Source: an uncultured Clostridia bacterium (GTDB taxonomy: Bacteria > Bacillota > Clostridia > TANB77 > CAG-508). Taken from it: a DNA stretch of 64,000 nt. Where the stretch lies: the NCBI GenBank assembly GCA_944393325.1, contig CALXZU010000002.1, positions 20,179 through 84,178 on the forward strand, read 5' to 3'. Below are positions 7,109 through 55,500 of the stretch, one piece after another. The position numbers and the translations under genes were made by a program. The stretch's first letter is position 1, and each line of letters starts with the position of its first letter. The notes under the pieces are model-generated. The model saw only the letters and a list, made by a program, of their open reading frames with translations, was not told the origin of the DNA and did no database searches.

Positions 7109-8116
7109 TTAATATGTCAAGTGCTTTTGAGACAAAAAGTCTCCATCATCAAAACTTTCTCCTAACTCTGTTGACAAATATTTTTTATTGTCATCTGCAA
7201 ATATGGTTATAATATCTTTTTCCAGTTTATAACCCAATTTAATTGCTCCTACTAAATTTGCTCCTGATGATATTCCAACTCCTATTCCTAATTCTCTCGC
7301 CAATTTTTTTGCCATATTTATTGCTTCTTCATCACTTACTAATATAATATCATCTATCTTTTCCTTGTCTAAAAGTTCAGGTATGAAATCATCTCCTATT
7401 CCTTCTATTTTATGTTGTTCATACTTAATATTTTCTTTATTACTATTCTTTTCTATTTTCCCTTTTGCTTCTGATATTATTGGCATTTTTTCTGGCTCAA
7501 TTGCAACTATTTTTATGTCTTTATATTTTTCTTTTAATCTATCTCCTATTCCCATTAGTGTTCCGCCTGTTCCTACTCCTGATACAAACCCTCCTATTGA
7601 TTTTCCATTTTCTAATTGTTCTATAATTTCTTTTCCAGTTGTTTCATAATGTGCATTATAATTATCTTTATTACTAAATTGATTTACTAAAAATGCTTTA
7701 TTTTTTCTTGCAAATTTTTTTGCTTCTTCCACACACCTTATAAATCCTCCTTCTTCTTTAGAAATTAGTTTTACATTTGCACCATAACATTTCATTAATT
7801 TTATTCTTTCTTTACTTACCCAATCTGGCATAAATATATATACTGGATTATTATAATATGCGCCTATTGCTGATAAAGAAATTCCTGTATTACCACTTGT
7901 TGCTTCTACGATAGGCATTTTTTCTTTTAAAACTCCTTCTCTTTTTGCTTTTTCTATTATATATAATGCTACTCTATCTTTTATACTTCCTGTTAAATTA
8001 TAATATTCTAATTTTACAAATACATTTATTTCTTTTTCTATTCCTTTTTCATCTTCTCCTTTGTATTTAAATTTGATTTTTATCATTGGCGTGTTTCCTA
8101 TTAAATCATCTAACAT
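7109..8116 (-). CDS. PLP-dependent cysteine synthase family protein (CysK/CysM-like)
   Basis: LTGSIKDR lysine motif, SGNTG, glycine-rich GVGTGGT loop. Confidence 0.8.
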   Translation of the reverse strand: MLDDLIGNTPMIKIKFKYKGEDEKGIEKEINVFVKLEYYNLTGSIKDRVALYIIEKAKREGVLKEKMPIVEATSGNTGISLSAIGAYYNNPVYIFMPDWVSKERIKLMKCYGANVKLISKEEGGFIRCVEEAKKFARKNKAFLVNQFSNKDNYNAHYETTGKEIIEQLENGKSIGGFVSGVGTGGTLMGIGDRLKEKYKDIKIVAIEPEKMPIISEAKGKIEKNSNKENIKYEQHKIEGIGDDFIPELLDKEKIDDIILVSDEEAINMAKKLARELGIGVGISSGANLVGAIKLGYKLEKDIITIFADDNKKYLSTELGESFDDGDFLSQKHLTY

Positions 8117-8688
8117 TTTTCTTCACCTTCAATATTATTTTCACTTTTAGCTTCACTTATACACTTTTTATTTGGTTCTTCAAAACTTAAATACCAATTT
8201 ATTCCGTTTTTATTTTTATTTATATATTCTACTCTTTTTTCCAATTCCTCATATGTTTTAGGTGCTGGTATTATTACTGGCTGATTAGGCATCCAATTCG
8301 CAGCTGTAGCTCCTCCCATACAATCTACCATTTGTAATGCTCTTACCGTTCTTAATATTTCTGGTATAAATCTCCCAACATTCATTGGATATATTAATAT
8401 TGTTCTAATAACTTGTTTTTCATCTATTATATATACATTTCTAACTGTTTCTGTAGTACTTTCCTCATTTGAAATCATTCCATATCTTCTTGCAATTATG
8501 CTATTTCTATCTGCTATTATTGGAAATGATATTTTTATTCCTGTTCTGCAATATATATCATATACCCATGCTAAATGTGAACTTAAGCTATCTACACTTA
8601 AAGCTAAAATTTCTGTGTTTATTTCTTTAAAATATGTATTTGCTCTTGTAAATGCTATCATTTCAGTCGTGCAAACTGGGGTAAAATC
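8110..8688 (-). pseudogene. 1-Cys peroxiredoxin, 3' fragment (N-terminal ~50 aa removed by element insertion)
   Basis: In-frame upstream of the listed M the sequence reads ...EADFTPVCTTE-MIAF..., the peroxidatic Cys motif, then a stop. No start codon exists. The matching 5' fragment is at 16301..16462. Confidence 0.85.
8678..8688. repeat. attachment-site core copy 1 (ggggtaaaatc)
   Basis: Exact match to 16314..16324. Confidence 0.75.
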
Positions 8689-8705
8689 CGCTTCTTTGGA
8701 TGTAT

Positions 8706-10286
8706 TTATATTAGTTTTTTAATATCTGGTTTTAGTTTAAATCTAATTGTTTTATCTTTACTTATATAAATTTTATCTATTATCATTTGTAAAATCATTT
8801 TATTAGGTTTTTCTAAATCTATTATTTCATTAAAATATTCTACTGCTGTCTTTATCTTTTCCATTTTTTCTTCTAATTGTTCTTTTTCATCTTTTTTTAA
8901 TGTAGATTGTAAATATGATATATTTTTCTTTTTTTCATCTTCTAATTCCTTATATGTATTTTCTATAATTTCTCGTTCTATATTACTACTAGCTAGAGAT
9001 AAATCTTTTATCTTTTGATTAATTAGTAATTTATATTCCTCATTTAAAATATTTAGCTTGTTTTGTAATTTTAATTTGTTATTTCCTCTTTTATTTTGTT
9101 TAATTTCAATTTTTATATTTTTAATTTCTTCTAAATATTCTTTCTTTGTAAATTTCAAAAACTCTTTTAGATGAATTGATATATCTTTTTCTTTTACTTC
9201 ATGGCAACAGCAAGCCCTTGTTCCATACTGTCTATATTTTGAGCAATCATATCCTTTTTCAGGAACTTTTCTTTTAATCATTATTCCTGACATACCAGAG
9301 CCACATCCTTGGCATTCGCACATTCCTGAAAAATAATATTCTCTTTTTGTATTTGCTCCAGAAGTATTTTGTTTATTTCTCTTCTTTCTTATTTCCTGTG
9401 CCAAATCAAATACCTCTTTTGGAATAATTGCCTCATGATGGTTTTCAAATCTAAAATGTTCTTCTTCAGGTAATTTTACTACTTTTCCTCTAATGTTTAT
9501 ACTTTTCTTTTTATGAGTTATTAGTGTTCCTGTATAAATTTCATTTTTTAAGATGTTACTTACCATATCTTTTGTCCAAGACTTTTGAACTTTATGCTTA
9601 TATATTCTGCCTCTTTCTAAGTGTTTCGTTCTATAATATTCTGATGGAGTTGGATAATTATATTTTTCATTCAAAGCTTCACTAATCTTTTGAAATCCCA
9701 TACCTTCTTCTACATATAACTTAAATATTAGTTTAATTACTGGTCTTAGTTCCTCTATTACATATAGCATTGGCACATTATTTTTAAATATTTTTTCATA
9801 TCCATAGTAATTTCCCATAATAAGCCTACCATCTTTTTGTTTTGAATACATATGGTCTCTTGTTTTTCTTGAGCAATCTTTTACATATCTTTCATTAAAC
9901 CATGTCGTAATTCCAATAGTATCATCTCTATCATTTAGTACATCATAACTGCCACCCATTTCTGAAACTAGAATTAAGTTTTTTTGCATATTTTTAAATT
10001 CATCAATTAAAACTAAAACAAGTCCGTTGTTTCTGCCTATTCTTGATAAATCTTTTGCTATTACAACATCTATTTCTCCTTTCTGTACTTTTTCCATCAT
10101 TTTTGAGAACTCAGGTCTATTAAAGGTATATCCCGAAACATTGTCATCTATGTAGAAGTCATCATCAGAAATAAACCAATTACGTGAAATTGCATAATCT
10201 TTTATAATTCTTTTTTGTTCTTCTATGCTTGAGTAATTTTCTTTATCTTCATCTCTAGACAATCTACAATATCCTACAACTGTCAT
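8706..10286 (-). CDS. large serine recombinase (resolvase domain, recombinase domain, Zn-ribbon, coiled-coil)
   Basis: MTVVGYCRLSRDED catalytic Ser region, IAKDLSRIGRN, Cys-rich CECQGCGSG...CCCH, C-terminal coiled-coil. GGAGGG RBS before the internal ATG at ~10286. Confidence 0.85.
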   Translation of the reverse strand: MTVVGYCRLSRDEDKENYSSIEEQKRIIKDYAISRNWFISDDDFYIDDNVSGYTFNRPEFSKMMEKVQKGEIDVVIAKDLSRIGRNNGLVLVLIDEFKNMQKNLILVSEMGGSYDVLNDRDDTIGITTWFNERYVKDCSRKTRDHMYSKQKDGRLIMGNYYGYEKIFKNNVPMLYVIEELRPVIKLIFKLYVEEGMGFQKISEALNEKYNYPTPSEYYRTKHLERGRIYKHKVQKSWTKDMVSNILKNEIYTGTLITHKKKSINIRGKVVKLPEEEHFRFENHHEAIIPKEVFDLAQEIRKKRNKQNTSGANTKREYYFSGMCECQGCGSGMSGIMIKRKVPEKGYDCSKYRQYGTRACCCHEVKEKDISIHLKEFLKFTKKEYLEEIKNIKIEIKQNKRGNNKLKLQNKLNILNEEYKLLINQKIKDLSLASSNIEREIIENTYKELEDEKKKNISYLQSTLKKDEKEQLEEKMEKIKTAVEYFNEIIDLEKPNKMILQMIIDKIYISKDKTIRFKLKPDIKKLI

Positions 10287-10323
10287 TTTCCCTCCTTCTT
10301 GCCTGATATTGCTAGTTTCTATG

Positions 10324-10539
10324 TTAGCATACATGATGACTCAAGTCTACTTGTTTCGTAATTATTTTTTTAAGAATTTCGGGATAATTCTCTTTTCCAC
10401 TTACGAAAATGCTAACCTTATACTTTTGTTTCTTATATTTTTCAATTACTTCTTTTGTAGATTGTTTTTCTGATTCTTCATCAGTCAAATAAATTTGCAC
10501 ATATTTTTCATTTAAGATTTTATTAGAAGTAATTTCCAT
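10324..10539 (-). CDS. small hypothetical protein upstream of recombinase (possible directionality factor)
   Basis: 71-aa ORF overlapping the recombinase 5' end; no motif. Confidence 0.3.
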   Translation of the reverse strand: MEITSNKILNEKYVQIYLTDEESEKQSTKEVIEKYKKQKYKVSIFVSGKENYPEILKKIITKQVDLSHHVC

Positions 10540-10847
10540 CTTTTTAACTCCTCCATAATATTCCTCTTAAATACTATGCAAAAAGAAATTTAAAATTCTT
10601 TTCGTCTAAAAATCACTTCCAAAACCTAACACAAATTGTTTAAAAGCATCTACATATCACCTCCTACCTATTAAAAACACTAAAAAATTTCCAAATGGGT
10701 AATTCTAAGAATAAAAGTCCAAATTTTATTCTAATTGTTGCATTTTATGTCTTTTTACTAAATTATTTTTTATCTTCTCTACTATATACATTCCATTTTG
10801 CTATAAAAATGTCTAAATATTAAAAATAAAACATAAAAGTTTTATAA

Positions 10848-10893
10848 AAAAATAGGAGGCTAAGCATTATTTAATGCCTAACCTCGCTATAAA
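10848..10893 (-). terminator. intrinsic terminator after 10897..11652
   Basis: Minus-strand 13-bp stem (gagguuaggcauu/aaugcuuagccuc, two G.U) then U-tract. Confidence 0.5.
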
Positions 10894-10896
10894 ACA

Positions 10897-11652
10897 TTAT
10901 AAATCTTTACCGAGTTCTGTTCTTTTCATACAAAACTCTTTAAAATAGCATTCTTCACATTTTGGGCTTGTTGGTCTACAATATTCTCTACCAGCTACCC
11001 AAAAAGGAAGTGTTAATGAACCTGGAAATTCGTCACAAATTTCTCGTGCACTTGCTGTAACATCCTTAATATTGTCATTATCAGCAAGTCCCATCCTTAA
11101 AAATATTCTTCTCACATGCACATCATATGCAATATCTATGCAGCGAAGATTTTTTAAGTTAACACCAAAGTCACGTACCAATAGTAACGTTCCTAGTGCT
11201 GCTTTTTTGTGACTAATTCCCTTAAATTCTTCCAACCTAGCTATTATATGTTCTGCATTCAAATCATTTTTCCAAATGTTTTCAGCTTCTGAATTATAAT
11301 CTTCTACAACTTTTTTAATTGCAAAGAAAATATATTCAGCCATCTTTCTTGGATAACGATGTAATGCAGGTTTCTCTTTTATAATAGCTTCTAGAGATTC
11401 AGCACTTTCTTCTTTGGCAATTTTACCAAAGTCAAAATGCCCCAATCTTTTTGAAAGATAATAAGGTAATCTCCAAGCCATCTCTGCTTTTACTGATTGA
11501 TCTGAAATTAGTGCAATCAAAAAAGCATTCCAGTCTGAAAGCAAGAATTTTCTTTCTTCATCTTTTAGCATACTTAATATGCTATTGTCTTTAATAACTA
11601 TTTTAGACACCTCTTTGCATTTTTCGTTTAATCGTTCATAATACTTTTCCAT
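10897..11652 (-). CDS. HhH-GPD family (EndoIII/MutY-like) DNA glycosylase-like protein with Fe-S cluster loop
   Basis: C-terminal C-x6-C-x2-C-x5-C (CRPTSPKCEECYFKEFC), the [4Fe-4S] loop of the Nth/MutY superfamily. GC higher than host. Confidence 0.55.
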   Translation of the reverse strand: MEKYYERLNEKCKEVSKIVIKDNSILSMLKDEERKFLLSDWNAFLIALISDQSVKAEMAWRLPYYLSKRLGHFDFGKIAKEESAESLEAIIKEKPALHRYPRKMAEYIFFAIKKVVEDYNSEAENIWKNDLNAEHIIARLEEFKGISHKKAALGTLLLVRDFGVNLKNLRCIDIAYDVHVRRIFLRMGLADNDNIKDVTASAREICDEFPGSLTLPFWVAGREYCRPTSPKCEECYFKEFCMKRTELGKDL

Positions 11653-11663
11653 TTTTCCTACCT

Positions 11664-12599
11664 CTACTTTCTAAATTCTATTGGCCAATTGTCACCCATA
11701 ATTTCTTCTTGCTCTTTGTCTGTCAAAGCCCATTTTCTTGTCTTATCATACTTAGGCACTTTGATTTCACCCCAATCAACAATTTTCACAGGCTTATCCG
11801 TAAAAACTGTATTCAACATATATAGCTCTGCCAAGGTGTATTGATCTAGTCTATTCAATTCAGCTTCTAGATTAGTTGAATCAATACAAAGCCAGTACGC
11901 ATCAGACTTTGCGAGTAATGTGAGTCTATCCTTTAGATATTTTGACTTATCATCCGCAAATTCATGATACAAAAAATAGCTTAAAATATTCTGAGGTGAA
12001 ATAGGACAAACATGCTCTTTATAAGCCTGAACTCTCGCCCAATCAATATGTTTATAATTCACAAAATTTGCTCCTATATAAACTGTTTGATGGGTTGAAG
12101 ATTTATATGGAGTTAGCAAATTGTTGAAAATATCATTTCTGAAATCTTCATCTGTCATCCTGCTTAGCCACTCATCTAATTCCAAATAATTCATTTCAAC
12201 TTGTTCGCTTCCATAAATATTAGGAATAAATGTAGCTTTTTTATGCTTTACCTGACTCCATAGAAATATTTCAGCCATTATTCCTTCTGATAAAAGAGTA
12301 TTTGTATTACCATATACCCATAATCTATCAGAAAAAATTGCTAGAGTCAAACAGTCAGTCATGACATTAATTTTCTTTCCACCTAATGTTTCAGTAGAAA
12401 TGTAGTAACCCAATGCCATCTCTGGATTTAATGCAATCATATTATTTTTCAGCACTCTATTGCAAATTGCCAACATATGATGCATATCATCACCATCAAA
12501 AGATGTATAAACTACTTTCCGCAGAGGCTCTTGTCTAAATTCCTGAATAATCTGTTTTGTTTCTGATGTCAACATCCCATAAATTTTATCCTTGAACAT
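11664..12599 (-). CDS. hypothetical protein (middle gene of element cargo operon)
   Basis: 311 aa; 3-nt and 11-nt gaps to flanking genes imply an operon. Confidence 0.5.
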   Translation of the reverse strand: MFKDKIYGMLTSETKQIIQEFRQEPLRKVVYTSFDGDDMHHMLAICNRVLKNNMIALNPEMALGYYISTETLGGKKINVMTDCLTLAIFSDRLWVYGNTNTLLSEGIMAEIFLWSQVKHKKATFIPNIYGSEQVEMNYLELDEWLSRMTDEDFRNDIFNNLLTPYKSSTHQTVYIGANFVNYKHIDWARVQAYKEHVCPISPQNILSYFLYHEFADDKSKYLKDRLTLLAKSDAYWLCIDSTNLEAELNRLDQYTLAELYMLNTVFTDKPVKIVDWGEIKVPKYDKTRKWALTDKEQEEIMGDNWPIEFRK

Positions 12600-12602
12600 C
12601 TT

Positions 12603-13172
12603 TTATCTCCTTATACTTTGCATAATTAACTGTTGCAATGACAAGCATGACTTAATAGTGTAATCATTTACTATAACAATATCGAATAATTCCTTATTGT
12701 TATAAAAAAATTCCAGCTCGTCATCTATGTCCCTTAAACGCTTGTTCAAATCTTGCTGACTCATGTGTCTTGCCTCTAATTCTGCCTTTGTTCTTTCAAC
12801 ATCAATTGGCAAAATATAAACGCTTAAGACATTACTAAATTCTAATCTGAATTCACTTACATTTTTGTAAAACAATTCAGTAATTAAGTTGATACCCTTA
12901 TCACATAATTGAATCTGTGATTTTTTATATGCATACCAATTTCCAAACACCTCATTAACCACACAAAGTCTTCCAGAATGATTTTCTTGTTCGAACTCTT
13001 CTAATGAGTAGAAAAATTTGTCGACACCGTCTATTTCATTTTGGCGTCTCCCCCGAGTCGTTACTGAAATTAAAGATTGAAAATCTCTATTATTTTTCAG
13101 AATATACGATTTTAAGAAGGATTTACCTATTCCAGAAATTCCGGACAAAGTTACAATTTTACCTTTTTGCAT
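12603..13172 (-). CDS. guanylate-kinase-like P-loop nucleotide kinase
   Basis: P-loop SGISGIGKS, GMP-kinase-like TTRGRRQNEIDGVDKFFYSLEEFEQ. Confidence 0.6.
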   Translation of the reverse strand: MQKGKIVTLSGISGIGKSFLKSYILKNNRDFQSLISVTTRGRRQNEIDGVDKFFYSLEEFEQENHSGRLCVVNEVFGNWYAYKKSQIQLCDKGINLITELFYKNVSEFRLEFSNVLSVYILPIDVERTKAELEARHMSQQDLNKRLRDIDDELEFFYNNKELFDIVIVNDYTIKSCLSLQQLIMQSIRR

Positions 13173-13382
13173 GATACTTCTCCTTTCGCAACTGAAAAAT
13201 CTTATAATGTTTTATAGCCTCTCTCCTTAAAAAGTTTTTATTAGTAAAACTTTTTCATAATAATTTTACCAACAACAATATTATACAATATTTTCCATTA
13301 TTTTTTAATAGTTATGTAAATTTAAAATTGACTATTGTAAAAAAAATGATATAATATAAAAAAAATTTGGAGGTAATTTAAA

Positions 13383-13973
13383 ATGAAATTAATTTTAGCA
13401 TCAAATTCAAAAACAAGAAAAAACATTTTTGATATGGTTGGTTGGAAATATGAAATAATAACAAGCAAAGTAGAAGAACATAGTGATTCTACCGATCCCA
13501 AACAGTACGTAATTGACTTGTCAAAAGATAAAGCAAACTCAGTTGCTTCTCAAGTCAAAGATAAAGCACTAATTGTTGCTGCTGACTCTATTATATATAT
13601 GGATAATAAAAAGTTTAAAAAACCAAAAAGTAAAGAAGAAGCTTTTGAAAACATAAAGAAAATGAGCGGAAAAGTTAATTATGCTGTTACTGGAGTAACA
13701 ATAAAGGATTTATACAAAAATAAAGAAATTTCTTTTAGTGACACTACAGATGTATATTTCAAAAATGTTACTACTCAAGACATTTCTTGGTATGTGGAAA
13801 ACGAAAAATATTTATTAAATAGAGCAGGATATTCTATAGCAGGTAAAACATCTATTTTTATTGATAAAATAATCGGAGATTATTATAACATTTTAGGCAT
13901 GCCTATTAGTAAATTATATACAAAACTTAATGAATTAGGTTATACTATTTCGGATTTTGAAATGAAAGAATAA
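13383..13973 (+). CDS. maf: Maf/Ham1-type nucleoside-triphosphate pyrophosphatase (septum formation protein Maf family)
   Basis: N-terminal LILASNSKTRKNIF, typical Maf length and motifs. Confidence 0.8.
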   Translation: MKLILASNSKTRKNIFDMVGWKYEIITSKVEEHSDSTDPKQYVIDLSKDKANSVASQVKDKALIVAADSIIYMDNKKFKKPKSKEEAFENIKKMSGKVNYAVTGVTIKDLYKNKEISFSDTTDVYFKNVTTQDISWYVENEKYLLNRAGYSIAGKTSIFIDKIIGDYYNILGMPISKLYTKLNELGYTISDFEMKE

Positions 13974-13999
13974 AAATGCTTTTGTTTTATACAATATGT

Positions 14000-14108
14000 T
14001 TTGCAGGATCAGGGAGACGTCTCGGATCCCTGTAACTACCTAAAAACGTAGTTTTTAGCGGTCTACTCTTTAATTTCAGAGTAGACTGATGTACGTCTCG
14101 CTTTTTTA
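14000..14108 (+). ncRNA. GC-rich structured element (candidate small RNA / cis-regulatory RNA or protein-binding palindrome cluster)
   Basis: Local GC far above surroundings. 10-bp perfect palindrome GAGACGTCTC (~14014-14023) inside a 6-bp stem (caggga/tccctg). 9-bp perfect hairpin gtctactct/agagtagac (14061-14086). 3' acgtctc complementary to 5' gagacgt, ending cgcTTTTTT. Confidence 0.3.
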
Positions 14109-14110
14109 TG

Positions 14111-14150
14111 AAAAAACAAGTATAAATTTATATTTTTATACTTGTTTTTT
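14111..14150. terminator. bidirectional intrinsic terminator between maf (+) and 14155..14460 (-)
   Basis: 11-bp stem acaagtataaa/tttatacttgt flanked by an A-tract and a T-tract. Confidence 0.5.
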
Positions 14151-14154
14151 GGTT

Positions 14155-14460
14155 TTATTTAAGTTCTTCCTTTAGATTAATTCCATCTCTTAATCCTGCA
14201 AAATAATACTTTTTATAAAAATAATAACTCTCATAATCAATTGTTTCTATATAATCTTTTATTACTTTTCTAATGCTAACTTTTAACCAATTAAGATTAT
14301 ATGGAATTTTGTCTAATTCATCATTTAAAAGTTTAGATTTTTTACTTCTGTTTGCTTTGTCTTGACTCATAAATTTTTTATCATTTTCATCAATGAGAGC
14401 TAAGTCTCTTTCTCTTGCTTCAAATATTATTTCTAGCATGTTATAATTTTCTTTTTCCAT
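14155..14460 (-). CDS. hypothetical protein
   Basis: 101-aa ORF in element. Confidence 0.4.
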   Translation of the reverse strand: MEKENYNMLEIIFEARERDLALIDENDKKFMSQDKANRSKKSKLLNDELDKIPYNLNWLKVSIRKVIKDYIETIDYESYYFYKKYYFAGLRDGINLKEELK

Positions 14461-14511
14461 TTAACATCACCTCCAATTAGTTTGTGATATTAACTCTGTT
14501 CGAATTATTAT

Positions 14512-14946
14512 TCAAGTCTTTTCTATAAATAAATTATTAGCATATAAACTTGTCCAATCGAAATTATTATAATCCCTATGAGATTTATGTATTGATATTT
14601 TCTTATAATTTATTTTATTAATATTTAGTATATCTTTAACATTTTTATTAATAGGATTATTACAAATTTGTTTATCTGTATTAACATATTTATTAATAGG
14701 TGTAATTTTTCTCAAAGCAATTTCTCTTGAATTTTCTTTATATATCATTTGAATTTTTATATATTCTTTCTTTTTCAATGAATTTACTATTCTTGATGCT
14801 TGTATTTTTGTAATATCTAATAATTTACTTATATATGCGTTTGACATTATACATTCATTTTCTTTACTTAAATGTATAATCATAGAATATATAATTTTTT
14901 CTTTATCATTTAGTTTTGTATCTGTTAATACTTCATATGGAGCCAT
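14512..14946 (-). CDS. putative winged-helix DNA-binding protein (replisome-organiser/DnaD-N-like)
   Basis: N-terminal LNDKEKIIYSMIIHL...ISKLLDITKIQASRIVNSLKKKEYI resembles HTH/wHTH of phage or plasmid initiator proteins. Confidence 0.35.
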   Translation of the reverse strand: MAPYEVLTDTKLNDKEKIIYSMIIHLSKENECIMSNAYISKLLDITKIQASRIVNSLKKKEYIKIQMIYKENSREIALRKITPINKYVNTDKQICNNPINKNVKDILNINKINYKKISIHKSHRDYNNFDWTSLYANNLFIEKT

Positions 14947-14964
14947 ATTCCTTTAAATTCTTTC

Positions 14965-15000
14965 AATATTTATTTTCTTTCCAATCAATCGCTCATCAAT
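14965..15000. promoter_or_regulatory. ~35-bp conserved motif upstream of 14512..14946, repeated at 16170..16205
   Basis: ttttctt(t/c)(c/t)caatcaatcgctc..caat.gatt present in both upstream regions. Confidence 0.3.
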
Positions 15001-15094
15001 TGATTTCTTATCATTTTTATGACTTACTTGTTTTATTTAGTATATTTATCAAAATTCTATTTAAAATTTTAGAATAATATTTTTCATTATCTTT

Positions 15095-16075
15095 CTATCT
15101 CTCTTGTTCTTCAATCATTTTTTCTCTCATGTTACTATTAAAACATATTTTATGTGGATCTAGTTCGTATTTTCTAGCATTCCTGCTAATAATATCATTT
15201 AAGATTTTATATGGATTTTCTTCAGTTCTTTTATTTTCTATAGTACTATATGCTTCATTTATAGCATCTTCTAATAGCTCTGTAACCATATTATTATATG
15301 AGCCATACTTTTCTTTCATTCTTTCTGTTGGTTCTGTAGCATATCCTATCCAATTATCTATATATCCAGTAAGGATTGGTGGCTTATTACATCTAGATAT
15401 TAATTTTGGAAATCTATTGCCAATACTTTGTAAGATATTTATATATGCCAATAAATTTTCATCACTTGCATACATTACAATTGTATCATCTCTTTTCTTT
15501 TCAATTCCGTCATCAAATTTATAGTAAAAAGGAATTTCTTCTTTTAACGCTTCAATTGTAAATAATCCCAATAAACGATATGTATCATTTGGTTCTGGAT
15601 TTATGTATAATCTATGCTTTATATCCATATAATCTTCCTGCTTAGCACGTAATTCCCTTGAATAGACATGTACAAAACTTGTATTATTTTTAAAATAATT
15701 ATACCAGCAATATTGTTCTACTAATGGAAAACGATTAAATACTTGCTGCAATTCTTCATATGTATCTACATTTTTATCCTGTTGAGATAAAGAATCATAT
15801 AATTCATATATATTACCTTGATAACTTCCTCTTTGTTTTAAATCTAATAATTGCTGTTTACTTAATGATAATATATTATTTTTCCATACATTAAATAATA
15901 AAGCATACAGATTTTCTCTATAATCATATTCATATTTAAAATGTTTGTTTTTACTATTTTGTTTTATCAACTCAAAATATAAATTTTTATTCCTATAATC
16001 TGGTAATCTTCTTAATAAGTCACCATTAAACAACGGATTTTTTATACTATTATATAACTCTGTAAAATTTTGCAT
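15095..16075 (-). CDS. hypothetical protein
   Basis: 326-aa ORF in element. Confidence 0.45.
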   Translation of the reverse strand: MQNFTELYNSIKNPLFNGDLLRRLPDYRNKNLYFELIKQNSKNKHFKYEYDYRENLYALLFNVWKNNILSLSKQQLLDLKQRGSYQGNIYELYDSLSQQDKNVDTYEELQQVFNRFPLVEQYCWYNYFKNNTSFVHVYSRELRAKQEDYMDIKHRLYINPEPNDTYRLLGLFTIEALKEEIPFYYKFDDGIEKKRDDTIVMYASDENLLAYINILQSIGNRFPKLISRCNKPPILTGYIDNWIGYATEPTERMKEKYGSYNNMVTELLEDAINEAYSTIENKRTEENPYKILNDIISRNARKYELDPHKICFNSNMREKMIEEQER

Positions 16076-16169
16076 AATTTACTCCTATTTTTATATTATA
16101 TTTAGTATATTTTATCATGTTTCTTATTCACATACAATACCAACAATATAGACATATATCAAATTGTCT

Positions 16170-16205
16170 ACAATATTAATTTTCTTCTCAATCAATCGCT
16201 CCACA
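16170..16205. promoter_or_regulatory. second copy of conserved upstream motif
   Basis: See 14965..15000. Confidence 0.3.
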
Positions 16206-16300
16206 ATCGATTTTGTTCAATTTTTATTCAACTTTCGATAAACCCCATACCAGTATAAAAATATAAGCAATATCAGGATTTTTATTTATTCACCCAAAGA

Positions 16301-16462
16301 TTAGCATATTACCGGGGTAAAATCTCCTGGATGTGAAAATAATACAAGCCATTTTCCTTCATATTGTTTTAAATTTATCTTTCCCCATGTTGAACTAGCT
16401 TCAAAATTTGGTGCTTTTTCACCTATTTTCACATTTCCATTTTCTAATAATTCATAACTCAT
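16301..16462 (-). pseudogene. 1-Cys peroxiredoxin 5' fragment (53 codons) fused to element-derived stop
   Basis: AGGAG RBS then [53 protein letters not shown]. The sequence diverges from prx exactly after the DFTP core. Confidence 0.8.
16314..16324. repeat. attachment-site core copy 2 (ggggtaaaatc)
   Basis: Exact match to 8678..8688. Confidence 0.75.
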
Positions 16463-16606
16463 AAAAATAAACTCCTTTCATTTATATATATTATGAAAGA
16501 AGTTCTTTTTTGTTAATTTACTTTTATTTTTTTCTATGCCACTTATAAAATGTTCATATCATCTATCTTTTCCTATTCTTTGTATAACTATCCACTAAAA
16601 TTTAAT

Positions 16607-17134
16607 TTAAAAACCATATTCAAAAATTTCTGCTGGTTTCATATCTCCACAATCACAAATAGATTGAAAAGCCATTTTGTGTGCAACAATAATTACTGTA
16701 TCATAATTTTCTTTATATTTATTAATAACAGACATAACTCTATTTCTTAATTGTTCCTTTGTTTCCCAATTTCTTTTTTCGTTAATTGGATATACTCCAT
16801 GATTTTTAATATAATCATTATAATATTCCTGCATCTCTTCACCATTTTTGTATTGATATGTAAGATCTGGTTGCCATTCTCTTATATCTGGCTCAACTAC
16901 AATATCAAGTCCTGTTTCCTTAGATATTATACTTGCTGTTTGTAATGCTCTTGTATATGGTGAAGACACAATAATTTGTGCATTTTTTAATCTGATATCT
17001 TTTGATGTCTTTATAACCTCATCTATCCTTTCTTCTTTTAATGGTGCTAAATCATGTCCTTGACCTATAAATCCATGAGTATCTCCATATGTATAATCTG
17101 ATTTACCATGTCTAATTAAATAAAATTTTGCCAT
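16607..17134 (-). CDS. histidine phosphatase family protein (phosphoglycerate-mutase-like)
   Basis: LIRHGKS (RHG motif); start reassigned to MAKFYLIRHG preceded by AGGGAG. Confidence 0.75.
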   Translation of the reverse strand: MAKFYLIRHGKSDYTYGDTHGFIGQGHDLAPLKEERIDEVIKTSKDIRLKNAQIIVSSPYTRALQTASIISKETGLDIVVEPDIREWQPDLTYQYKNGEEMQEYYNDYIKNHGVYPINEKRNWETKEQLRNRVMSVINKYKENYDTVIIVAHKMAFQSICDCGDMKPAEIFEYGF

Positions 17135-17154
17135 TCTTTCTCCCTTATTACTTT

Positions 17155-18459
17155 CTAATCTACTATTTTTTCTATGTTTCCAATGCAATATAATGGTATA
17201 TTTATAAGACTTTCTTCTTTTCTGTAATTTGACATTGATGTTCTAATATTTTTAGTTGTTTTATATTTTTCTACAAAAGTTTTTAAACTTTTTGCTTGTA
17301 AATTTTCTTCTGATTTTACTTCTATTGGTATAATATCTATACCTAACTGTATTACAAAGTCGATTTCTGCTGTAGCCCTTTTAGCACTCCAATAATATAT
17401 TGGAATATCTTTATTTGATTTTAACTCTGTCAAAACAAATTGCTCAGTAAATGCCCCTTTAAATTCTGTAAAAATTTTATTTCCTTCTAACAATACTCTC
17501 TCGTCAATTCTTGTCATCGCTCCTAAAATTCCGACATCAAGAATAAAAAGTTTAAATGCACTTGTGTCTTGATAAGCTATAAGTGGAAGATTAGGTTTAT
17601 TTACTCTATCTACTTTATATATTAATCCGCAATCAATTAGCCATGATAATGCTAATTCATAATCTTTTGCTCTTGCTCCTTCTTTAATTAGTCCATAAAT
17701 AAATTTTTTATTTTCTTTTGCAAGTTGTGCTGGAATACTATTCCATAACATTTTCAGTCTTGGTACGATTTCACTTGGTGCATGTTTGGAAAAATCTTCT
17801 TCATATGAGTTTAGCAACCTTAATTGTGTTTCTCTTACTTTTCTAAAATTCTTAGTTTCTAAATATTTATTTATAACTGATGGCATACCACCAATAAAAT
17901 AATATTCTCTTAAATATAAAATTAATTTATCTCTAAAAACACTTATTAAATTCCAATCTTTTTTATTTAATATTTCTACTAATTGTTCTTCTCCTAATGC
18001 AAGTAAAAATTCTTTGAAATTTAGTGGATACAAATACATAAAATCCACCTTTCCTACTGGGAACGATGTTCCTTCATGTAATGCAACACCTAAAAGTGAA
18101 CCAGCTGCTATTATATGATATTCTCTTGCATTTTCACAAAAGTATTTAAGTGATGCAATGGCTTTTGGCACCTCTTGGACTTCGTCAAAAATTAGCAATG
18201 TGTCTTTTGCATCAATATCTACTTTTGTTTCTATCCTTAAACCTTGTATTATTCTATCTATATCAAAATCTGGTTCAAATAATTCTTCCATTCTTTTATT
18301 TCCATCAAAATTTATATATGCTACTTTTTTATAATTATCTTTACCAAATTCTTTCATTATCCATGTTTTTCCAACTTGTCTAGCACCTCTTATTATTAAT
18401 GGCATTCTGTCTTTAGAATTTTTCCATTCTTCCAATTCTTTTATTTTTTCACGATACAT
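17155..18459 (-). CDS. AAA+ ATPase with DUF4143-type C-terminal domain
   Basis: Walker A GARQVGKT, Walker B LLIFDEVQ; start reassigned to MYREKI after GGAGGG. Confidence 0.7.
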   Translation of the reverse strand: MYREKIKELEEWKNSKDRMPLIIRGARQVGKTWIMKEFGKDNYKKVAYINFDGNKRMEELFEPDFDIDRIIQGLRIETKVDIDAKDTLLIFDEVQEVPKAIASLKYFCENAREYHIIAAGSLLGVALHEGTSFPVGKVDFMYLYPLNFKEFLLALGEEQLVEILNKKDWNLISVFRDKLILYLREYYFIGGMPSVINKYLETKNFRKVRETQLRLLNSYEEDFSKHAPSEIVPRLKMLWNSIPAQLAKENKKFIYGLIKEGARAKDYELALSWLIDCGLIYKVDRVNKPNLPLIAYQDTSAFKLFILDVGILGAMTRIDERVLLEGNKIFTEFKGAFTEQFVLTELKSNKDIPIYYWSAKRATAEIDFVIQLGIDIIPIEVKSEENLQAKSLKTFVEKYKTTKNIRTSMSNYRKEESLINIPLYCIGNIEKIVD

Positions 18460-18546
18460 ATACTTCCCTCCATATTCATTATATGTATATTGTATCATAA
18501 TTATTACAAAAATTCAAATGACTTTTTAGTTTTTATCTACACTTTT

Positions 18547-19491
18547 TCAAAGGACTTTTTGTGCATAATACATATCATATTCTCCCCAAGATTTATTTTT
18601 TCCTTCAAATATTTCTGATAATCCCCATACGCCTCCACAATCATCTATAATACCATATCCTTTTCCAGATAAAACTTTAAACTTCTTTTCTTCTCCATAT
18701 CCATCAATAACTTTAGAAACTCTCAAATTAAATGTCCAACTATCTCCCCAATCATATACTATTTTTAATTTTTGAGCCTTTTGTAATTCTAAATAATTTA
18801 AATCTTGCTCATTTAAAACTTCATCATCAATATAGTCTTTTCCTTTTTTAAGTCCATATAAATGAGTTAAATCACCGTTCATTGAAGTAATTACACACCT
18901 TGTGAAAGTATCTAAATTCACATTGCTGTCTACTAATACTTTTCTCTTTATTTCTTTAGTAAATCCTTCTAAAGAAACATTTATCTCATAGCTTTTTGGC
19001 TGTAAATAGCTATAATATCTTTCTATACCTTCTTCTATCTTTTCATTTATAGTATTTATATCAAATTTATCTTCTTTGAATTCTATTATACCAGGAAATT
19101 GTCTTTTATAATACTTGCTATTATTCTCATCTACTTTTAATTTTAAAATCTCTTTTAAAAAACAACTTCCTCCACAATTTTCTAATATTCCAACACCTAA
19201 ACCACTTACAACCCTAAAATCTTTTTCATAGTTTCCTTTTCTTATATCAGTTATATTAATATAAAAATCCCAATCAGATGTAAAATCATAATTTAACAGA
19301 AGATAATCATTATTTTTCAGTTCTAAATCTGATAATTTCTTATTACTCATGATTTCCTCATTTTTTTCATCTTTTATATTACATCCATTACTTAAATAGG
19401 CATGTTCTTCATTTAACAATAATTGATATAAATGCTTACAATTCCCATTTAGCGAAACAATTACATGTTCACAAAAAGATTTTAAACTCAT
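18547..19491 (-). CDS. pRiA4b ORF-3-like family protein, tandem-duplicated domain
   Basis: Two copies of ...LTHLY...YDWGDSW...GIIDDCGGVWGL... / ...GILENCGGSCFL. Confidence 0.5.
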   Translation of the reverse strand: MSLKSFCEHVIVSLNGNCKHLYQLLLNEEHAYLSNGCNIKDEKNEEIMSNKKLSDLELKNNDYLLLNYDFTSDWDFYINITDIRKGNYEKDFRVVSGLGVGILENCGGSCFLKEILKLKVDENNSKYYKRQFPGIIEFKEDKFDINTINEKIEEGIERYYSYLQPKSYEINVSLEGFTKEIKRKVLVDSNVNLDTFTRCVITSMNGDLTHLYGLKKGKDYIDDEVLNEQDLNYLELQKAQKLKIVYDWGDSWTFNLRVSKVIDGYGEEKKFKVLSGKGYGIIDDCGGVWGLSEIFEGKNKSWGEYDMYYAQKVL

Positions 19492-52569: not shown

Positions 52570-55500
52570 TTAGAAAGTCGTACACAGACGCACGTAGGCG
52601 AGGTTGTTCACGGTGGTGCCGTGGATATAATAACCACTAAAAGCCGCAGTGTAGACGTTGTTAGTACGTAATTGCGAAGATGTCCAGTATTCACTTTTTA
52701 ACTTATAAGTGCTATAATCACTCCTTGTTATTTCTAAGCTTCCTGCAAATGCTACCCATTCTTCTCTTGATGGTACGAACCATCCTTGTTTTACTTGGTT
52801 TTGTATTACTCCCCACATATCTCTACTATTTTGTGATCCGTATCCATTAGAGTTCCATTTTGCTACCATATTGGCTGTATTTGCTTTTCCTGTTCCAAAA
52901 CTCTTCGATGTTGTACTACTATAATCACTCATTTTTCCTGCACTATTATACCAATAAAACAATGTCTTTGAATCTTGTTTTATGTCTTCCAATGCCATTA
53001 TATAGAATCTATCATTTCCACTTGTTCCAGCTACCGGTGCTATTAATTTTCCACTCTTATTTCCAAATCTACTATCACTATAATTTTCGTTTGTTATATA
53101 ATATTCTTTTAGTCCGCTTGCTATTGGTATACTATAACTTTCTTCTAATCCTGTTCCACTTCCTCCTACTGCTAAATCAGCAAATATAATTCCATCTGCT
53201 GTTTCATCACCATTTGTGTCTGCATAATTTCCTACGTATGATTCACTTGTTGGTATTGAAGCTGTTAATGTTATTTTTATAGTTATCTTTTTATTTCCAT
53301 TCCCTTCTTTTACTACTACGCTTGTTTCTCCTCCTGCTTTTGGTACTATTGTAAGTGTACTTCCAGAAATTGAAGCAGTTGCTATACTTGAATTAGGTGG
53401 GGTTACTATTTTAAATGTTCCATGATTTGTTCCTCCTAGTGTTACTCTTTGGTTTCCATCACTTACATTTGCTGTTACACTACTTGGACTCGCTGTTATA
53501 CTTGTTGCTAAAACTGATATATTTATTGTAGCTGTTTTATTTCCATTTGACTCTTGTAATTCTAAACTTGTTGTTCCTACTGTATCAGTTGGTGTTATCG
53601 TTAGGCTTGTTCCACTTATACTTGCTGTTGCATATGTACCATTAGGTGGTGTAATTATATTTAAATTTCCCATATTTTGTCCTTGTATTGTTACTGTTTT
53701 TGCTGAACCTCCTGCATATACTTCTACTGTTTGTGGTGTTATACTTGGTAAAAGTACTGTTACTTTTATTGTCACTGTTTTTCCTGCATTCGACTCCGTT
53801 ACTGTTATATTTGTTGTTCCTGAACCTTTTGGTGTTATTGTTACTACTTTATTACTTATACTTGCTGTTGCTACAGTAGAGCTTGAACTTGTTACACTTA
53901 GCTTTCCTGCATATGTTCCACTTATTGTTACTGTTCCTGTATTTCCTCCTACATATAATGTTAATGTTGTTTTATCTGCTGTTATTGTGCTATCTCTTAC
54001 AGTTACTGTAACTGTTACTTGTTGATTCGCATTTGTTTCTTTTAAAGTTAGTGTTGCTGTTCCTGTTGTTGTTCCTGGTTTTATTGTAAGTGTTGTTCCA
54101 CTTATACTTCCTGTTGCTATATTTGAATTACTAGTTGTAACAGTTAATCCTGCATAATTAGAACCTGTAATTGTTACTGTCTGATTACTTCCTCCTTTAT
54201 ATGCTGTTACACTATTTGTTGATACTCCTAATGTTACTGTTTTTACTGTAACTGGTATTGTAACTGTCTTTCCTCCATTTGCTTCTTTTACAACTATATT
54301 TCCACTTCCTTGTGCTTTTGGTGTAATTGTCAATGTACTACCACTTATACTTGCCTTATAATAATTTGTTTCTCCTCCTGATGTTATACTAAATGCTCCT
54401 GCATTTGTTCCACTTAATGTTATTGTTTTATTTCCTCCACTTACATATGCTACTACACTTGTTGGTTCTGCTTTTATTGTTGTTGTTAATACTTTTATAC
54501 TTACTGTTACCTTAGCATTTCCATTTGACTCTGTTATTATTACACTTGTTGTTCCTTCTGCCTTTGGTGTTATTGTAAGTGTATTTCCAGAAATAGATGC
54601 AGTTGCTATATTTGTATTTATTCCACTTAAACTTAAACTTCCTTTATTACTTCCTTCTATTGTTACTGTTTTATTTCCTCCACCTACATATGCTGTTACA
54701 CTTGTTGGATTTGCTGTAACACTTGTTGCTAATACTTTTATACTTACTGTTACTGTTTTTCCTCCATTTGCCTCTTTTACTACTACATTTCCACTTCCTG
54801 CTGCTTTTGGTGTTATTGTTAATGTACTATTATTTAAAATTGCTGTATAAGCACTAGTGCTCGCTCCTGATGTTATACTTAATGTTCCTTTATTATCTCC
54901 ACTAAGTGTTACAGTTTTTGCTCCTCCTCCTATATATGCCGTTATACTTGTTGGACTTGCTGTAAGTGTTGTTGCTTTTACTGTTACACTAATAGTTTTT
55001 TGCTTATTTCCATTTCCTTCTTTTACTACAATACTTCCACTTCCTACTGCCTTTGGTGTTATTGTAAGTGTACTTCCACTTACAGTTGCTGTATAGTAAT
55101 TTGTACTTCCTCCAGAAACTATACTAAATGCTCCTGCACTTGTTCCTCCTAATGTTACTGTTTGATTATTTCCTCCTACATATGCTACTATACTTTCTGG
55201 GCTTGCTGTTATTGTTGTTGCTTTTACTGTTACTGCTATTGCAACTGTCTTTCCTCCATTTGCTTCTTTTATTGTTATATTTGTCGTACCTGCTGCCTTT
55301 GGTGCTAAAGTTAATGTATCTCCATTAAGTGTTGGTGTTACATAAGAATTTGTTGCTCCTGAACTTATACTTAATGCTCCTTTATTACTTCCTGTTATTG
55401 TTACATTTTGGCTTGAACCACCTACATATAATGTTACATTTTTATTGTTTGCATCTAATGTAGTTTCTAATACCTTAATATTTATTGTTTTTTGTACATT

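Follow-up and report, generated by a model that had tools for sequence, protein, structure and literature searches.

The DNA analysed here (the window) is a stretch of 64,000 nucleotides from an uncultured Clostridia bacterium, taken from contig CALXZU010000002.1 of NCBI GenBank assembly GCA_944393325.1 (positions 20,179 to 84,178). It contains a gene for a 1-Cys-type peroxiredoxin (prx) that is divided into two pieces by an element carrying a gene for a large serine recombinase (LSR). An initial annotation of this DNA had described the element as splitting prx precisely, and had proposed that it might be excised in a programmed manner like the skin elements of sporeformers. The features of the split gene, its two junctions and the recombinase unit are the following, in the direction of prx.

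16487..16516, minus strand: conserved motif upstream of prx, TTAACA-N16-CATAATATA, of the sigmaK type (AC-N16/17-CATAnnnTA)
16470..16504, minus strand: hairpin in the leader of prx, with a 5' arm AACTTCTTTCAT that overlaps the CATA box and a 3' arm ATGAAAGGAGTT that holds the ribosome-binding site
16314..16462, minus strand: prx 5' fragment, codons 1-50, within an open reading frame (ORF, 16301-16462) that continues into the element
16291..16345, minus strand: attR, composed of the attB left half CATCCAGGAGATTTTACC, the central CC (16315-16314) and the attP right arm GGTAATATGCTAATCTTTGGGTG
10554..10606, minus strand: conserved leader of the p71-LSR operon, with an AT-rich hairpin and a T-run, then a hairpin CATAGTATT/AATATTATG directly 5' of the ribosome-binding site, and a CATAnnnT box
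10324..10539, minus strand: p71, a 71-aa protein whose gene overlaps the LSR start by 11 nt; candidate recombination directionality factor (RDF)
8706..10334, minus strand: LSR, 542 aa, with Resolvase, Recombinase and Zn_ribbon_recom domains and Ser26 in YCRLSRDED
8655..8705, minus strand: attL, composed of the attP left arm ATACATCCAAAGAAGCGGATTTTACC, the central CC (8679-8678) and the attB right half AGTTTGCACGACTG
8110..8688, minus strand: prx 3' fragment, from Asp46, including the peroxidatic Cys in PVCTTE

Both prx halves can be read in the window and an identical 11-bp core stands at each junction, just as the initial annotation had stated. The core, GATTTTACCCC (minus strand), occurs at 8678-8688 and 16314-16324, with no further copy in the window. 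The count of this 11-mer expected by chance is 0.01, and two matches were seen in none of 100 shuffles. From core to core, the element measures 7,636 bp. The 5' ORF starts at 16462 (MSYELLENG...), enters foreign sequence and terminates with VIC* (stop at 16301), three codons inside the element; in sister contigs, the 53-aa product of this fragment is matched by AhpC-TSA. The prx reading frame picks up at 8688 with DFTPVCTTEMIAF and stops at 8110, and this 3' piece has no start codon ahead of the Cys. As predicted, deletion of the interval regenerates a peroxiredoxin of 238 codons: joining 16462..16314 to 8677..8110 yields a 238-aa protein with AhpC-TSA and 1-cysPrx_C domains. The AhpC-TSA domain covers residues 13-142 of the joined protein, and it is interrupted by the cut at residue ~50.

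Comparison with related genomes, suggested at the outset, revealed an uninterrupted prx on two metagenome contigs (L001 and L002), whose product (P0001) is 100% identical to the joined peroxiredoxin. L001 aligns with window positions 16857-16311 (99.5%) and 8688-7966 (97.9%), and the switch point lies exactly at the core. An empty prx site exists in the same species, and the element is polymorphic within this species. We rejected the view that the empty-site contig is an excision product; it comes from another strain, because one flank (the 3' one) is 2.1% diverged from the window. The exact LSR sequence is present on at least 22 other contigs. Ten of these were inspected, and all ten have an identical integrated context and cargo in differing samples and with differing assemblers, as does contig L003. 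Since this context is the same on ten contigs of such varied origin, the split structure is not an assembly artefact.

The LSR gene abuts the left junction, as annotated, with 17 nt between its stop codon (8706-8708) and the core. Its product matches PF00239 over residues 19-170 (8.2e-23), PF07508 (2.9e-22) and PF13408 (5.3e-06), the latter two above the gathering score, and the phrog_95 integrase over residues 6-535 (3.4e-87). When the protein was checked for a catalytic Ser, YCRLSRDED aligned with the LYERLSRDDD motif of the TnpX catalytic domain (2mhc), and Ser26 fell on the catalytic Ser of TnpX. Searches with Pfam, NCBIfam and PHROGs yielded no capsid, tail, terminase or lysis genes, in agreement with the initial annotation; the PHROGs matches are an integrase, a guanylate kinase and a replication-initiator-like winged helix-turn-helix (wHTH) protein only. 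In addition, Pfam and NCBIfam gave no relaxase, coupling protein or type IV secretion system gene among the nine element proteins. Compositional distinctness of the element was rejected, its GC content (26.8%) being as in the flanks (~26%).

Beside the split gene, we observed that the prx stop overlaps the start of a downstream PALP (cysteine-synthase-like) gene in this species and its closest relatives (window 8110-8116, minus strand; L094:4717-5757). The insertion therefore parts the PALP gene from the prx promoter and leaves it directly 3' of the LSR gene.

Attachment sites and the family of prx-splitting elements

The element belongs, in integrated form, to a large family of small islands of 3-11 kb that are driven by an LSR. 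In a scan of one genome per species, LSR relatives (62-98% identical) were found in 79 species loci, and all 79 hosts are metagenome-assembled genomes (MAGs) of uncultured gut Clostridia from humans, mice, rabbits, goat and chicken, including 'Clostridium sp. CAG:273'. Pieces of prx are present at 72 of the 79 loci. In 66 loci, a prx 3' piece that begins at residue 46-48 comes after the LSR gene; among these, the two lie at most 150 nt apart in 39, and one extra gene stands between them in 26. Where the contig is long enough, the prx 5' piece (residues 1-51) is located 3-11 kb upstream. The dedicated attachment site of this family is the DNA for the peroxidatic-Cys loop of a 1-Cys-type peroxiredoxin, in uncultured gut Clostridia with sporulation genes. 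The split prx pieces retain open frames in ~90% of the loci.

Only p71 (70 loci) and the recombinase (76 loci) are conserved throughout the family, and p71 is restricted to it. Cargo is highly variable, with 135 of 169 cargo protein families being singletons in 44 delimited elements. The relatives carry Abi_2, a HepT/MNT toxin-antitoxin pair, a UvrD-like helicase, radical-SAM/SPASM enzymes and AAA_14/DUF4143 ATPases. We rejected the idea that the elements have diverged together with their hosts by vertical descent, on two grounds: LSR identity correlates weakly with prx identity (Spearman 0.28), and near-identical LSRs occur in diverged hosts. In many pairs the LSRs are 93-99% identical and the prx 3' part of the hosts just 61-74%, which indicates that the elements move horizontally between species and that these are independent integrations. 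Likewise, the L004 element and that of the window share 96% identity in the recombinase and 80% in prx. No LSR relative was found in IMG/VR, and none that is close in phage (identity at most 35%) and plasmid (at most 37%) collections; a phage or plasmid origin was rejected on these grounds.

We reconstructed the attachment sites from attL and attR of the window and from the junctions of ~60 loci. The resulting attP reads CATCCA-N9-ATTTTACC-CC-GGTAATAT-N9-TGGGTG, and attB reads CATCCA-N4-ATTTTACC-CC-AGTTTGCACG. The element-side arms are inverted repeats, in the window CATCCAAAGA/TCTTTGGGTG and TTACC/GGTAA around the central CC. At least two arm types, CAyCCAAAGA and TCCCCACATT, covary with the LSR clade, and the host side is fixed by the prx active-site codons. 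Read off the junctions, the distance from the distal CATCCA to the centre is 12 nt in attB and 17 nt in attP. A 5-bp offset of this kind separates the attP from the attB half-sites of large serine integrases. The sites thus display what is expected for an LSR: a symmetric attP, a less symmetric attB, a common central dinucleotide and a distal motif placed 5 bp farther out in attP. From these sequences we infer that crossover takes place at the central CC. Catalysis of attP x attB recombination by the LSR is indirectly supported by recent same-site insertions in many species. During integration, the LSR would recombine the symmetric attP with the attB in prx, leaving the 11-bp shared core at both junctions and prx cut before its catalytic Cys.

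Two further observations concern the organisation of this family. Tandem pairs of its elements occupy one prx site at some loci (L005:615-11653, L012:1274-11858, L058 and L093:1-4056). These arrays have attP-like hybrid junctions between their members, and the downstream copy of L093 carries a decayed recombinase. Separately, one LSR clade (at least 17 loci) shares a 1-nt insertion in the zinc ribbon, GGA GTA AGT C GGT ATA ACC ATG, placed after the first Cys pair. The resulting ORFs of ~335 aa and 190 aa are both open across species (for instance L069:10990-11070, L062:10990-11060, L067, L070, L077 and L005:5470-5540). A full-length protein would require a +1 shift at AGU-CGG, a rare codon; otherwise, the recombinase would work in two pieces.

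The prx gene is also the target of a second LSR family. In at least 14 species it is cut again at codons ~82-87 (SSHLAW) by an element of 4-9 kb, leaving three prx pieces. The recombinase of this second family is only ~30% identical to the first, and its gene, too, immediately precedes the prx piece on its downstream side. The core (TCACATyTnGCAT) and the inverted arms (GTTGGTAAC/GTTACCAAC) are specific to this second family. Examples are found at L012:11977-20842, L024:13292-20479, L069:11771-16036 and L071:11728-15977.

Putative sporulation signals and competing explanations

The window encodes SpoIID, a SpoIIAB-like kinase beside a sigma factor, and the germination protease Gpr. The sole conserved feature upstream of prx is (G/T)TAACm-N16/17-CATAnnATATA, which ends ~20-25 nt before the ribosome-binding site. 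Of 35 loci, 28 have the form AC-N16/17-CATAnnWTA and 32 have the CATA box, and the sigmaK-type motif also precedes the intact prx of two relatives (L094 and L097). In Clostridioides difficile, promoters of sigmaE and of sigmaK both have a CATA-type -10, and it is the -35 that sets them apart (ATA for sigmaE, AC for sigmaK); the coat peroxiredoxin-chitinase CotE of this species is sigmaK-dependent and has a mapped sigmaK promoter (PMC3789822). Some relatives have a DUF1540 gene after the intact prx. The exosporium protein CdeA of C. difficile belongs to the DUF1540 family, whose distribution follows that of endospore formers (PMC7677010, PMC2955703). Moreover, every characterised LSR intervening element of Firmicutes lies in a mother-cell gene (PMC4191935, PMC5595907). 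Our search for literature on sporulation of the TANB77/CAG-273 lineage returned nothing usable.

The two leaders of the locus are structured as well. The prx leader hairpin is found at the same position in ~30 loci and covaries, three of its seven pairs showing compensatory changes. Masking of the prx ribosome-binding site would speculatively be confined to read-through transcripts, because those begun downstream of the CATA box would be without the 5' arm. The p71 leader is present in ~70 loci, and its hairpin has nine pairs, four of them compensatory. It has no match in Rfam, and no known RNA family reaches the gathering score anywhere in the window. A CATAnnnT box stands 39-45 nt upstream of the p71 start codon in 57 of 72 leaders, 32 of which have ATA at -35.

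Taken together, these features suggest a route by which prx might be rebuilt. Excision would start in the sporulating mother cell, set off from a sigmaE-like promoter in the leader of p71 and the LSR. To excise the element, the LSR would depend on a directionality factor, and the candidate is p71, translated just upstream of it. Excision would restore prx exactly, and a sigmaK-type promoter would then express the rebuilt gene, possibly as a spore-surface peroxiredoxin, while the forespore would keep the element. We consider the chance of such sporulation-coupled excision in the mother cell to be slightly under even.

Several observations weigh against this reading. A single instance of the loose motif is not significant in AT-rich DNA (4 observed versus 5.6 expected), the site upstream of prx also scores as a weak sigma-70-like promoter (TTAACA-17-TAATAT), and the motif can be read as an operator too. 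The p71 leader is inconsistent, one LSR clade having AATA for CATA; that clade has a different CATAACA box further upstream, and a clean sigmaE/K promoter for p71 in all clades was rejected. As a directionality factor, p71 is a candidate, with a predicted model of moderate confidence (pLDDT 73). Open frames in the split pieces carry little weight if the insertions are young, and the recent transfer described above therefore means that they prove little. The LSR was integrated in all ten contigs inspected out of the 22 with the exact sequence, and the empty-site contig, with its 2.1% difference in one flank, belongs to another strain. A degenerate attP-junction pattern, searched as a mark of the excised circle, was not found in IMG/VR viral contigs. 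In metagenome contigs of the Joint Genome Institute it matched one site, which is a tandem-element junction beside a decayed LSR on an 87-kb chromosomal contig. No excised product was found, and the attP-pattern search gives evidence neither way. The first part of the initial annotation, an LSR element precisely splitting prx, has been borne out; the skin-like programmed excision, a hypothesis at this stage, has gained circumstantial support.

On the other hand, the element could be an ordinary mobile island without host-programmed excision, for which the prx active-site codons are an attB conserved across many species. Insertion would then knock out a prx that strict anaerobes can spare, and excision would be a rare event serving transfer. 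Extensive recent horizontal spread fits this explanation, as do tandem arrays, decayed LSR copies and very variable cargo (Abi_2, HepT/MNT, UvrD-like, radical-SAM), which is typical of accessory islands. The occupied form also dominates in the species (at least 22 contigs versus 2), neither a circular nor a joined product was seen alongside the integrated form, and a single copy of the promoter motif has little statistical weight. However, two unrelated LSR families converge on prx, the split fragments stay open in ~90% of loci, 28 of 35 loci have the sigmaK-type motif at a fixed spacing, and the LSR is coupled to a small conserved protein. The location of all characterised Firmicutes LSR gene-intervening elements in mother-cell genes also argues against an ordinary island, which we regard as a serious contender with clearly less than an even chance. 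Another explanation is a vegetative, reversible switch of the 'active lysogeny' type, in which oxidative or other stress would excise the element and turn prx on, with re-integration possible. The target is indeed an antioxidant gene, comK and mutL offer precedents (listed in PMC7192596), and the structured, conserved p71-LSR leader could sense a signal; LexA is encoded in the window, though nothing ties it to the element. Yet we identified neither a regulator nor an operator responsive to stress in the element, and excised forms were not found in the collections searched. The prx motif, moreover, resembles sporulation-sigma promoters more than a PerR box (10 of 15 positions match the Per-box consensus of Bacillus subtilis in a comparison by eye). 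We judge such a switch improbable, and the redox-conditional excision put forward in the initial annotation received no support. Finally, a chimeric join could have placed an unrelated element in prx, and the window assembly does have indel errors (uvrA, gpr). Identical junctions and cargo on at least ten independent contigs from different samples and assemblers, and on L003, together with the identical split in dozens of species, effectively refute this artefact.

Considered as a whole, a mobile LSR island that integrates at the attB in prx and would most likely be excised in the sporulating mother cell is the best explanation, to which we give almost an even chance. A broader joint reading, which we consider less likely than not, is that prx encodes a sigmaK-dependent spore-surface peroxiredoxin and offers a whole guild of cargo-carrying elements of gut Clostridia a 'safe harbour' in the germline. 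The LSR and dedicated 71-aa directionality factor of each element would be switched on by a mother-cell sigma factor, so that the gene is rebuilt in every sporulating mother cell and the spore inherits the element. Doubly interrupted species would need two orthogonal LSR systems to fire, at codons ~47-50 and ~82-87. The elements would stay horizontally mobile, and developmental excision would double as a launch step for transfer.

Relation to known systems

The class of mechanism is already known from skin, SPbeta, vfbin, vrin and gin, from the cyanobacterial excision elements and from 'regulated gene integrity' (RGI). As in the sporulation-specific intervening elements of this list (skin, SPbeta, vfbin, vrin and gin), deletion of the present element restores the interrupted gene. 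One close likeness is to skinCd in the sigK gene of C. difficile (LSR CD1231 and RDF CD1234), which is also an LSR element inside a clostridial coding region, in a sporeformer there and a putative one here, with precise rebuilding on deletion. In both cases an orphan protein of ~71-72 aa is encoded near the LSR; CD1234 has 72 aa and is controlled by sigmaE (PMC5025042). By contrast, the present element resides in prx rather than sigK, is far more mobile between species, has variable cargo and is known from sequence alone, and p71 is translationally coupled to the LSR whereas CD1234 is a separate gene.

The gin element in gerE of B. cereus (GirC and GirX) is likewise not a prophage, and combines an LSR with a small accessory factor; each of its junctions carries a short consensus core (PMC5595907). 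It differs in having three recombinase genes, where the present element has one LSR, in a GirX of 42 aa and in its target: gerE is a proven sporulation gene, and excision of gin was shown by experiment. SPbeta, at 134 kb, is a functional phage, whereas the present element lacks phage genes and no relative was found in phage collections. Like the present element, SPbeta (SprA and SprB) is still mobile; it interrupts spsM, a sigmaK-dependent spore-envelope gene of B. subtilis. The promoter of its directionality factor combines a perfect mother-cell -10 with an imperfect -35 (PMC4191935), a pattern to which the p71 leader is similar.

The heterocyst elements of cyanobacteria (fdxN, with the LSR XisF) are also excised by LSRs and interrupt genes needed only in a terminally differentiated cell, although phylum, target and cell type are all different. 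Several elements per gene are known among them. XisF is the best NCBIfam match of our LSR (2.4e-26), which is not an orthologue because its score of 92.7 is far below the cutoff of 375. SCCmec-type islands, moved by Ccr LSRs at rlmH, resemble the present family in being small cargo islands with one dedicated site, variable cargo, tandem or composite arrays and interspecies spread. The LSR also matches CcrA/B/C (1e-16 to 1e-20), with scores that fall far short of the cutoffs. SCC enters rlmH at its 3' end and the gene stays active, whereas the present insertion cuts prx before its catalytic Cys.

The family also corresponds to the operational definition of RGI candidates given by Mageeney et al. 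2020 (PMC7192596). A domain is disrupted without restoration by attP-borne sequence, and one integrase clade has entered the same domain in multiple independent integrations (66 split species loci). The text of PMC7192596 and the supplements searched show no case of AhpC-TSA or peroxiredoxin disruption, and the survey drew on isolate genomes, whereas the hosts here are uncultured MAGs. Full-text searches gave no paper linking peroxiredoxin to gene-intervening LSR elements, and the family is apparently undescribed. What is new is the target gene, the scale (~80 species), the use of one gene by two unrelated recombinase families, the tight pairing of p71 with the recombinase, and heavy horizontal traffic at a site that may be linked to sporulation.

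If excision is programmed, an antioxidant or coat-type enzyme would be a new, non-regulatory target among the sporeformer genes controlled by DNA rearrangement. This would occur in abundant uncultured gut Clostridia, where dozens of element variants, tandem arrays and two orthogonal recombinase families share one locus. Even if it is not, ~80 natural LSRs with attP and attB readable from genomes are useful for recombinase engineering, which is also served by the covariation of arms and enzymes, the naturally split LSR clade and the candidate cognate directionality factor. For gut ecology, prx is a hotspot for the movement of accessory genes between species, including Abi, toxin-antitoxin, radical-SAM and nucleotide-processing cassettes.

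Cargo and other features of the window

In the direction of prx, the element encodes a 326-aa protein, an HTH_36 protein and p101, then a divergent Maf gene, an operon of kinase, p311 and HhH genes, and the unit of leader, p71 and LSR. The cargo features are the following.

15095..16075, minus strand: 326-aa HopA1-like domain protein, without a Pfam match of its own; 595 homologue clusters, several with PF17914 HopA1
14512..14946, minus strand: 144-aa HTH_36 protein, like the N-terminal wHTH of replication initiators; in 16 related loci
14155..14460, minus strand: 101-aa protein (p101), partner of the HTH_36 gene in 15 loci
13383..13973, plus strand: Maf nucleotide pyrophosphatase, divergent from the kinase operon; Pfam 4.8e-46, TIGR00172 above cutoff
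12603..13172, minus strand: guanylate-kinase-like protein; Pfam 1.5e-19
11664..12599, minus strand: 311-aa protein (p311) with two nucleoside-2-deoxyribosyltransferase/TIR-like alpha/beta domains
10897..11652, minus strand: HhH-GPD-type glycosylase-like protein; TIGR03252 5e-25, below cutoff, and a weak Pfam HhH-GPD match
10856..10885, minus strand: intrinsic-terminator-like hairpin that closes the kinase/p311/HhH operon

The 326-aa product is, on the evidence of its homologues, a distant HopA1-like domain protein. About 16 loci of the family contain the HTH_36/p101 pair. The nucleotide-related enzymes noticed in the initial annotation are present, and what it had called an unusual cargo is a conserved four-gene cassette that is also found outside such elements. 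For p311 there are 99 homologues, ~40 of which are fusions of ~500 aa with a guanylate-kinase domain. The set of Maf, guanylate-kinase-like, p311 and HhH-GPD (250 aa) genes lies outside recombinase elements, between Mur-ligase and SecA genes, in three loci (L104-106), and a version in four others (L100-103) combines a kinase-p311 fusion, a 256-aa protein and Maf. Coordinates of the cassette are 10897-13973 in the window, L100:5375-8905 and L104:4594-7700. Its recurrence outside any LSR element is the reason why it looks like a captured passenger, and its gene content suggests a nucleotide- or nucleobase-processing pathway. A defence-system assignment of the cargo was not supported, given that PADLOC returned marginal matches only (VakA 1.4e-4, ThsB 1.6e-3 and Cas6 5.6e-3).

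Between a DnaB_C-like gene and prx, the window also contains His_Phos_1, AAA_14/DUF4143 ATPase and PRiA4_ORF3 genes (16607-19491, minus strand). This trio is missing at the syntenic site of relatives with intact prx (L094), and homologous AAA_14/DUF4143 genes lie inside prx elements, between the LSR and attL, in ~16 other loci. The three-gene block may be another insertion.

Elsewhere in the window, uvrA (44943-47895, minus strand) needs at least three frame changes and gpr (39380-40316, minus strand) needs one; many split genes are likewise seen in sister long-read contigs. These frame breaks are probably assembly indel errors rather than pseudogenes. An ORF of 3,206 aa occupies 52570-62190 (minus strand). 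Lastly, a 689-aa ORF (41265-43334, minus strand) has weak HTH, sigma-70 region 4 and IS630-like matches and is adjoined by two HTH proteins (43404-44942); this region may be another mobile or regulatory module.

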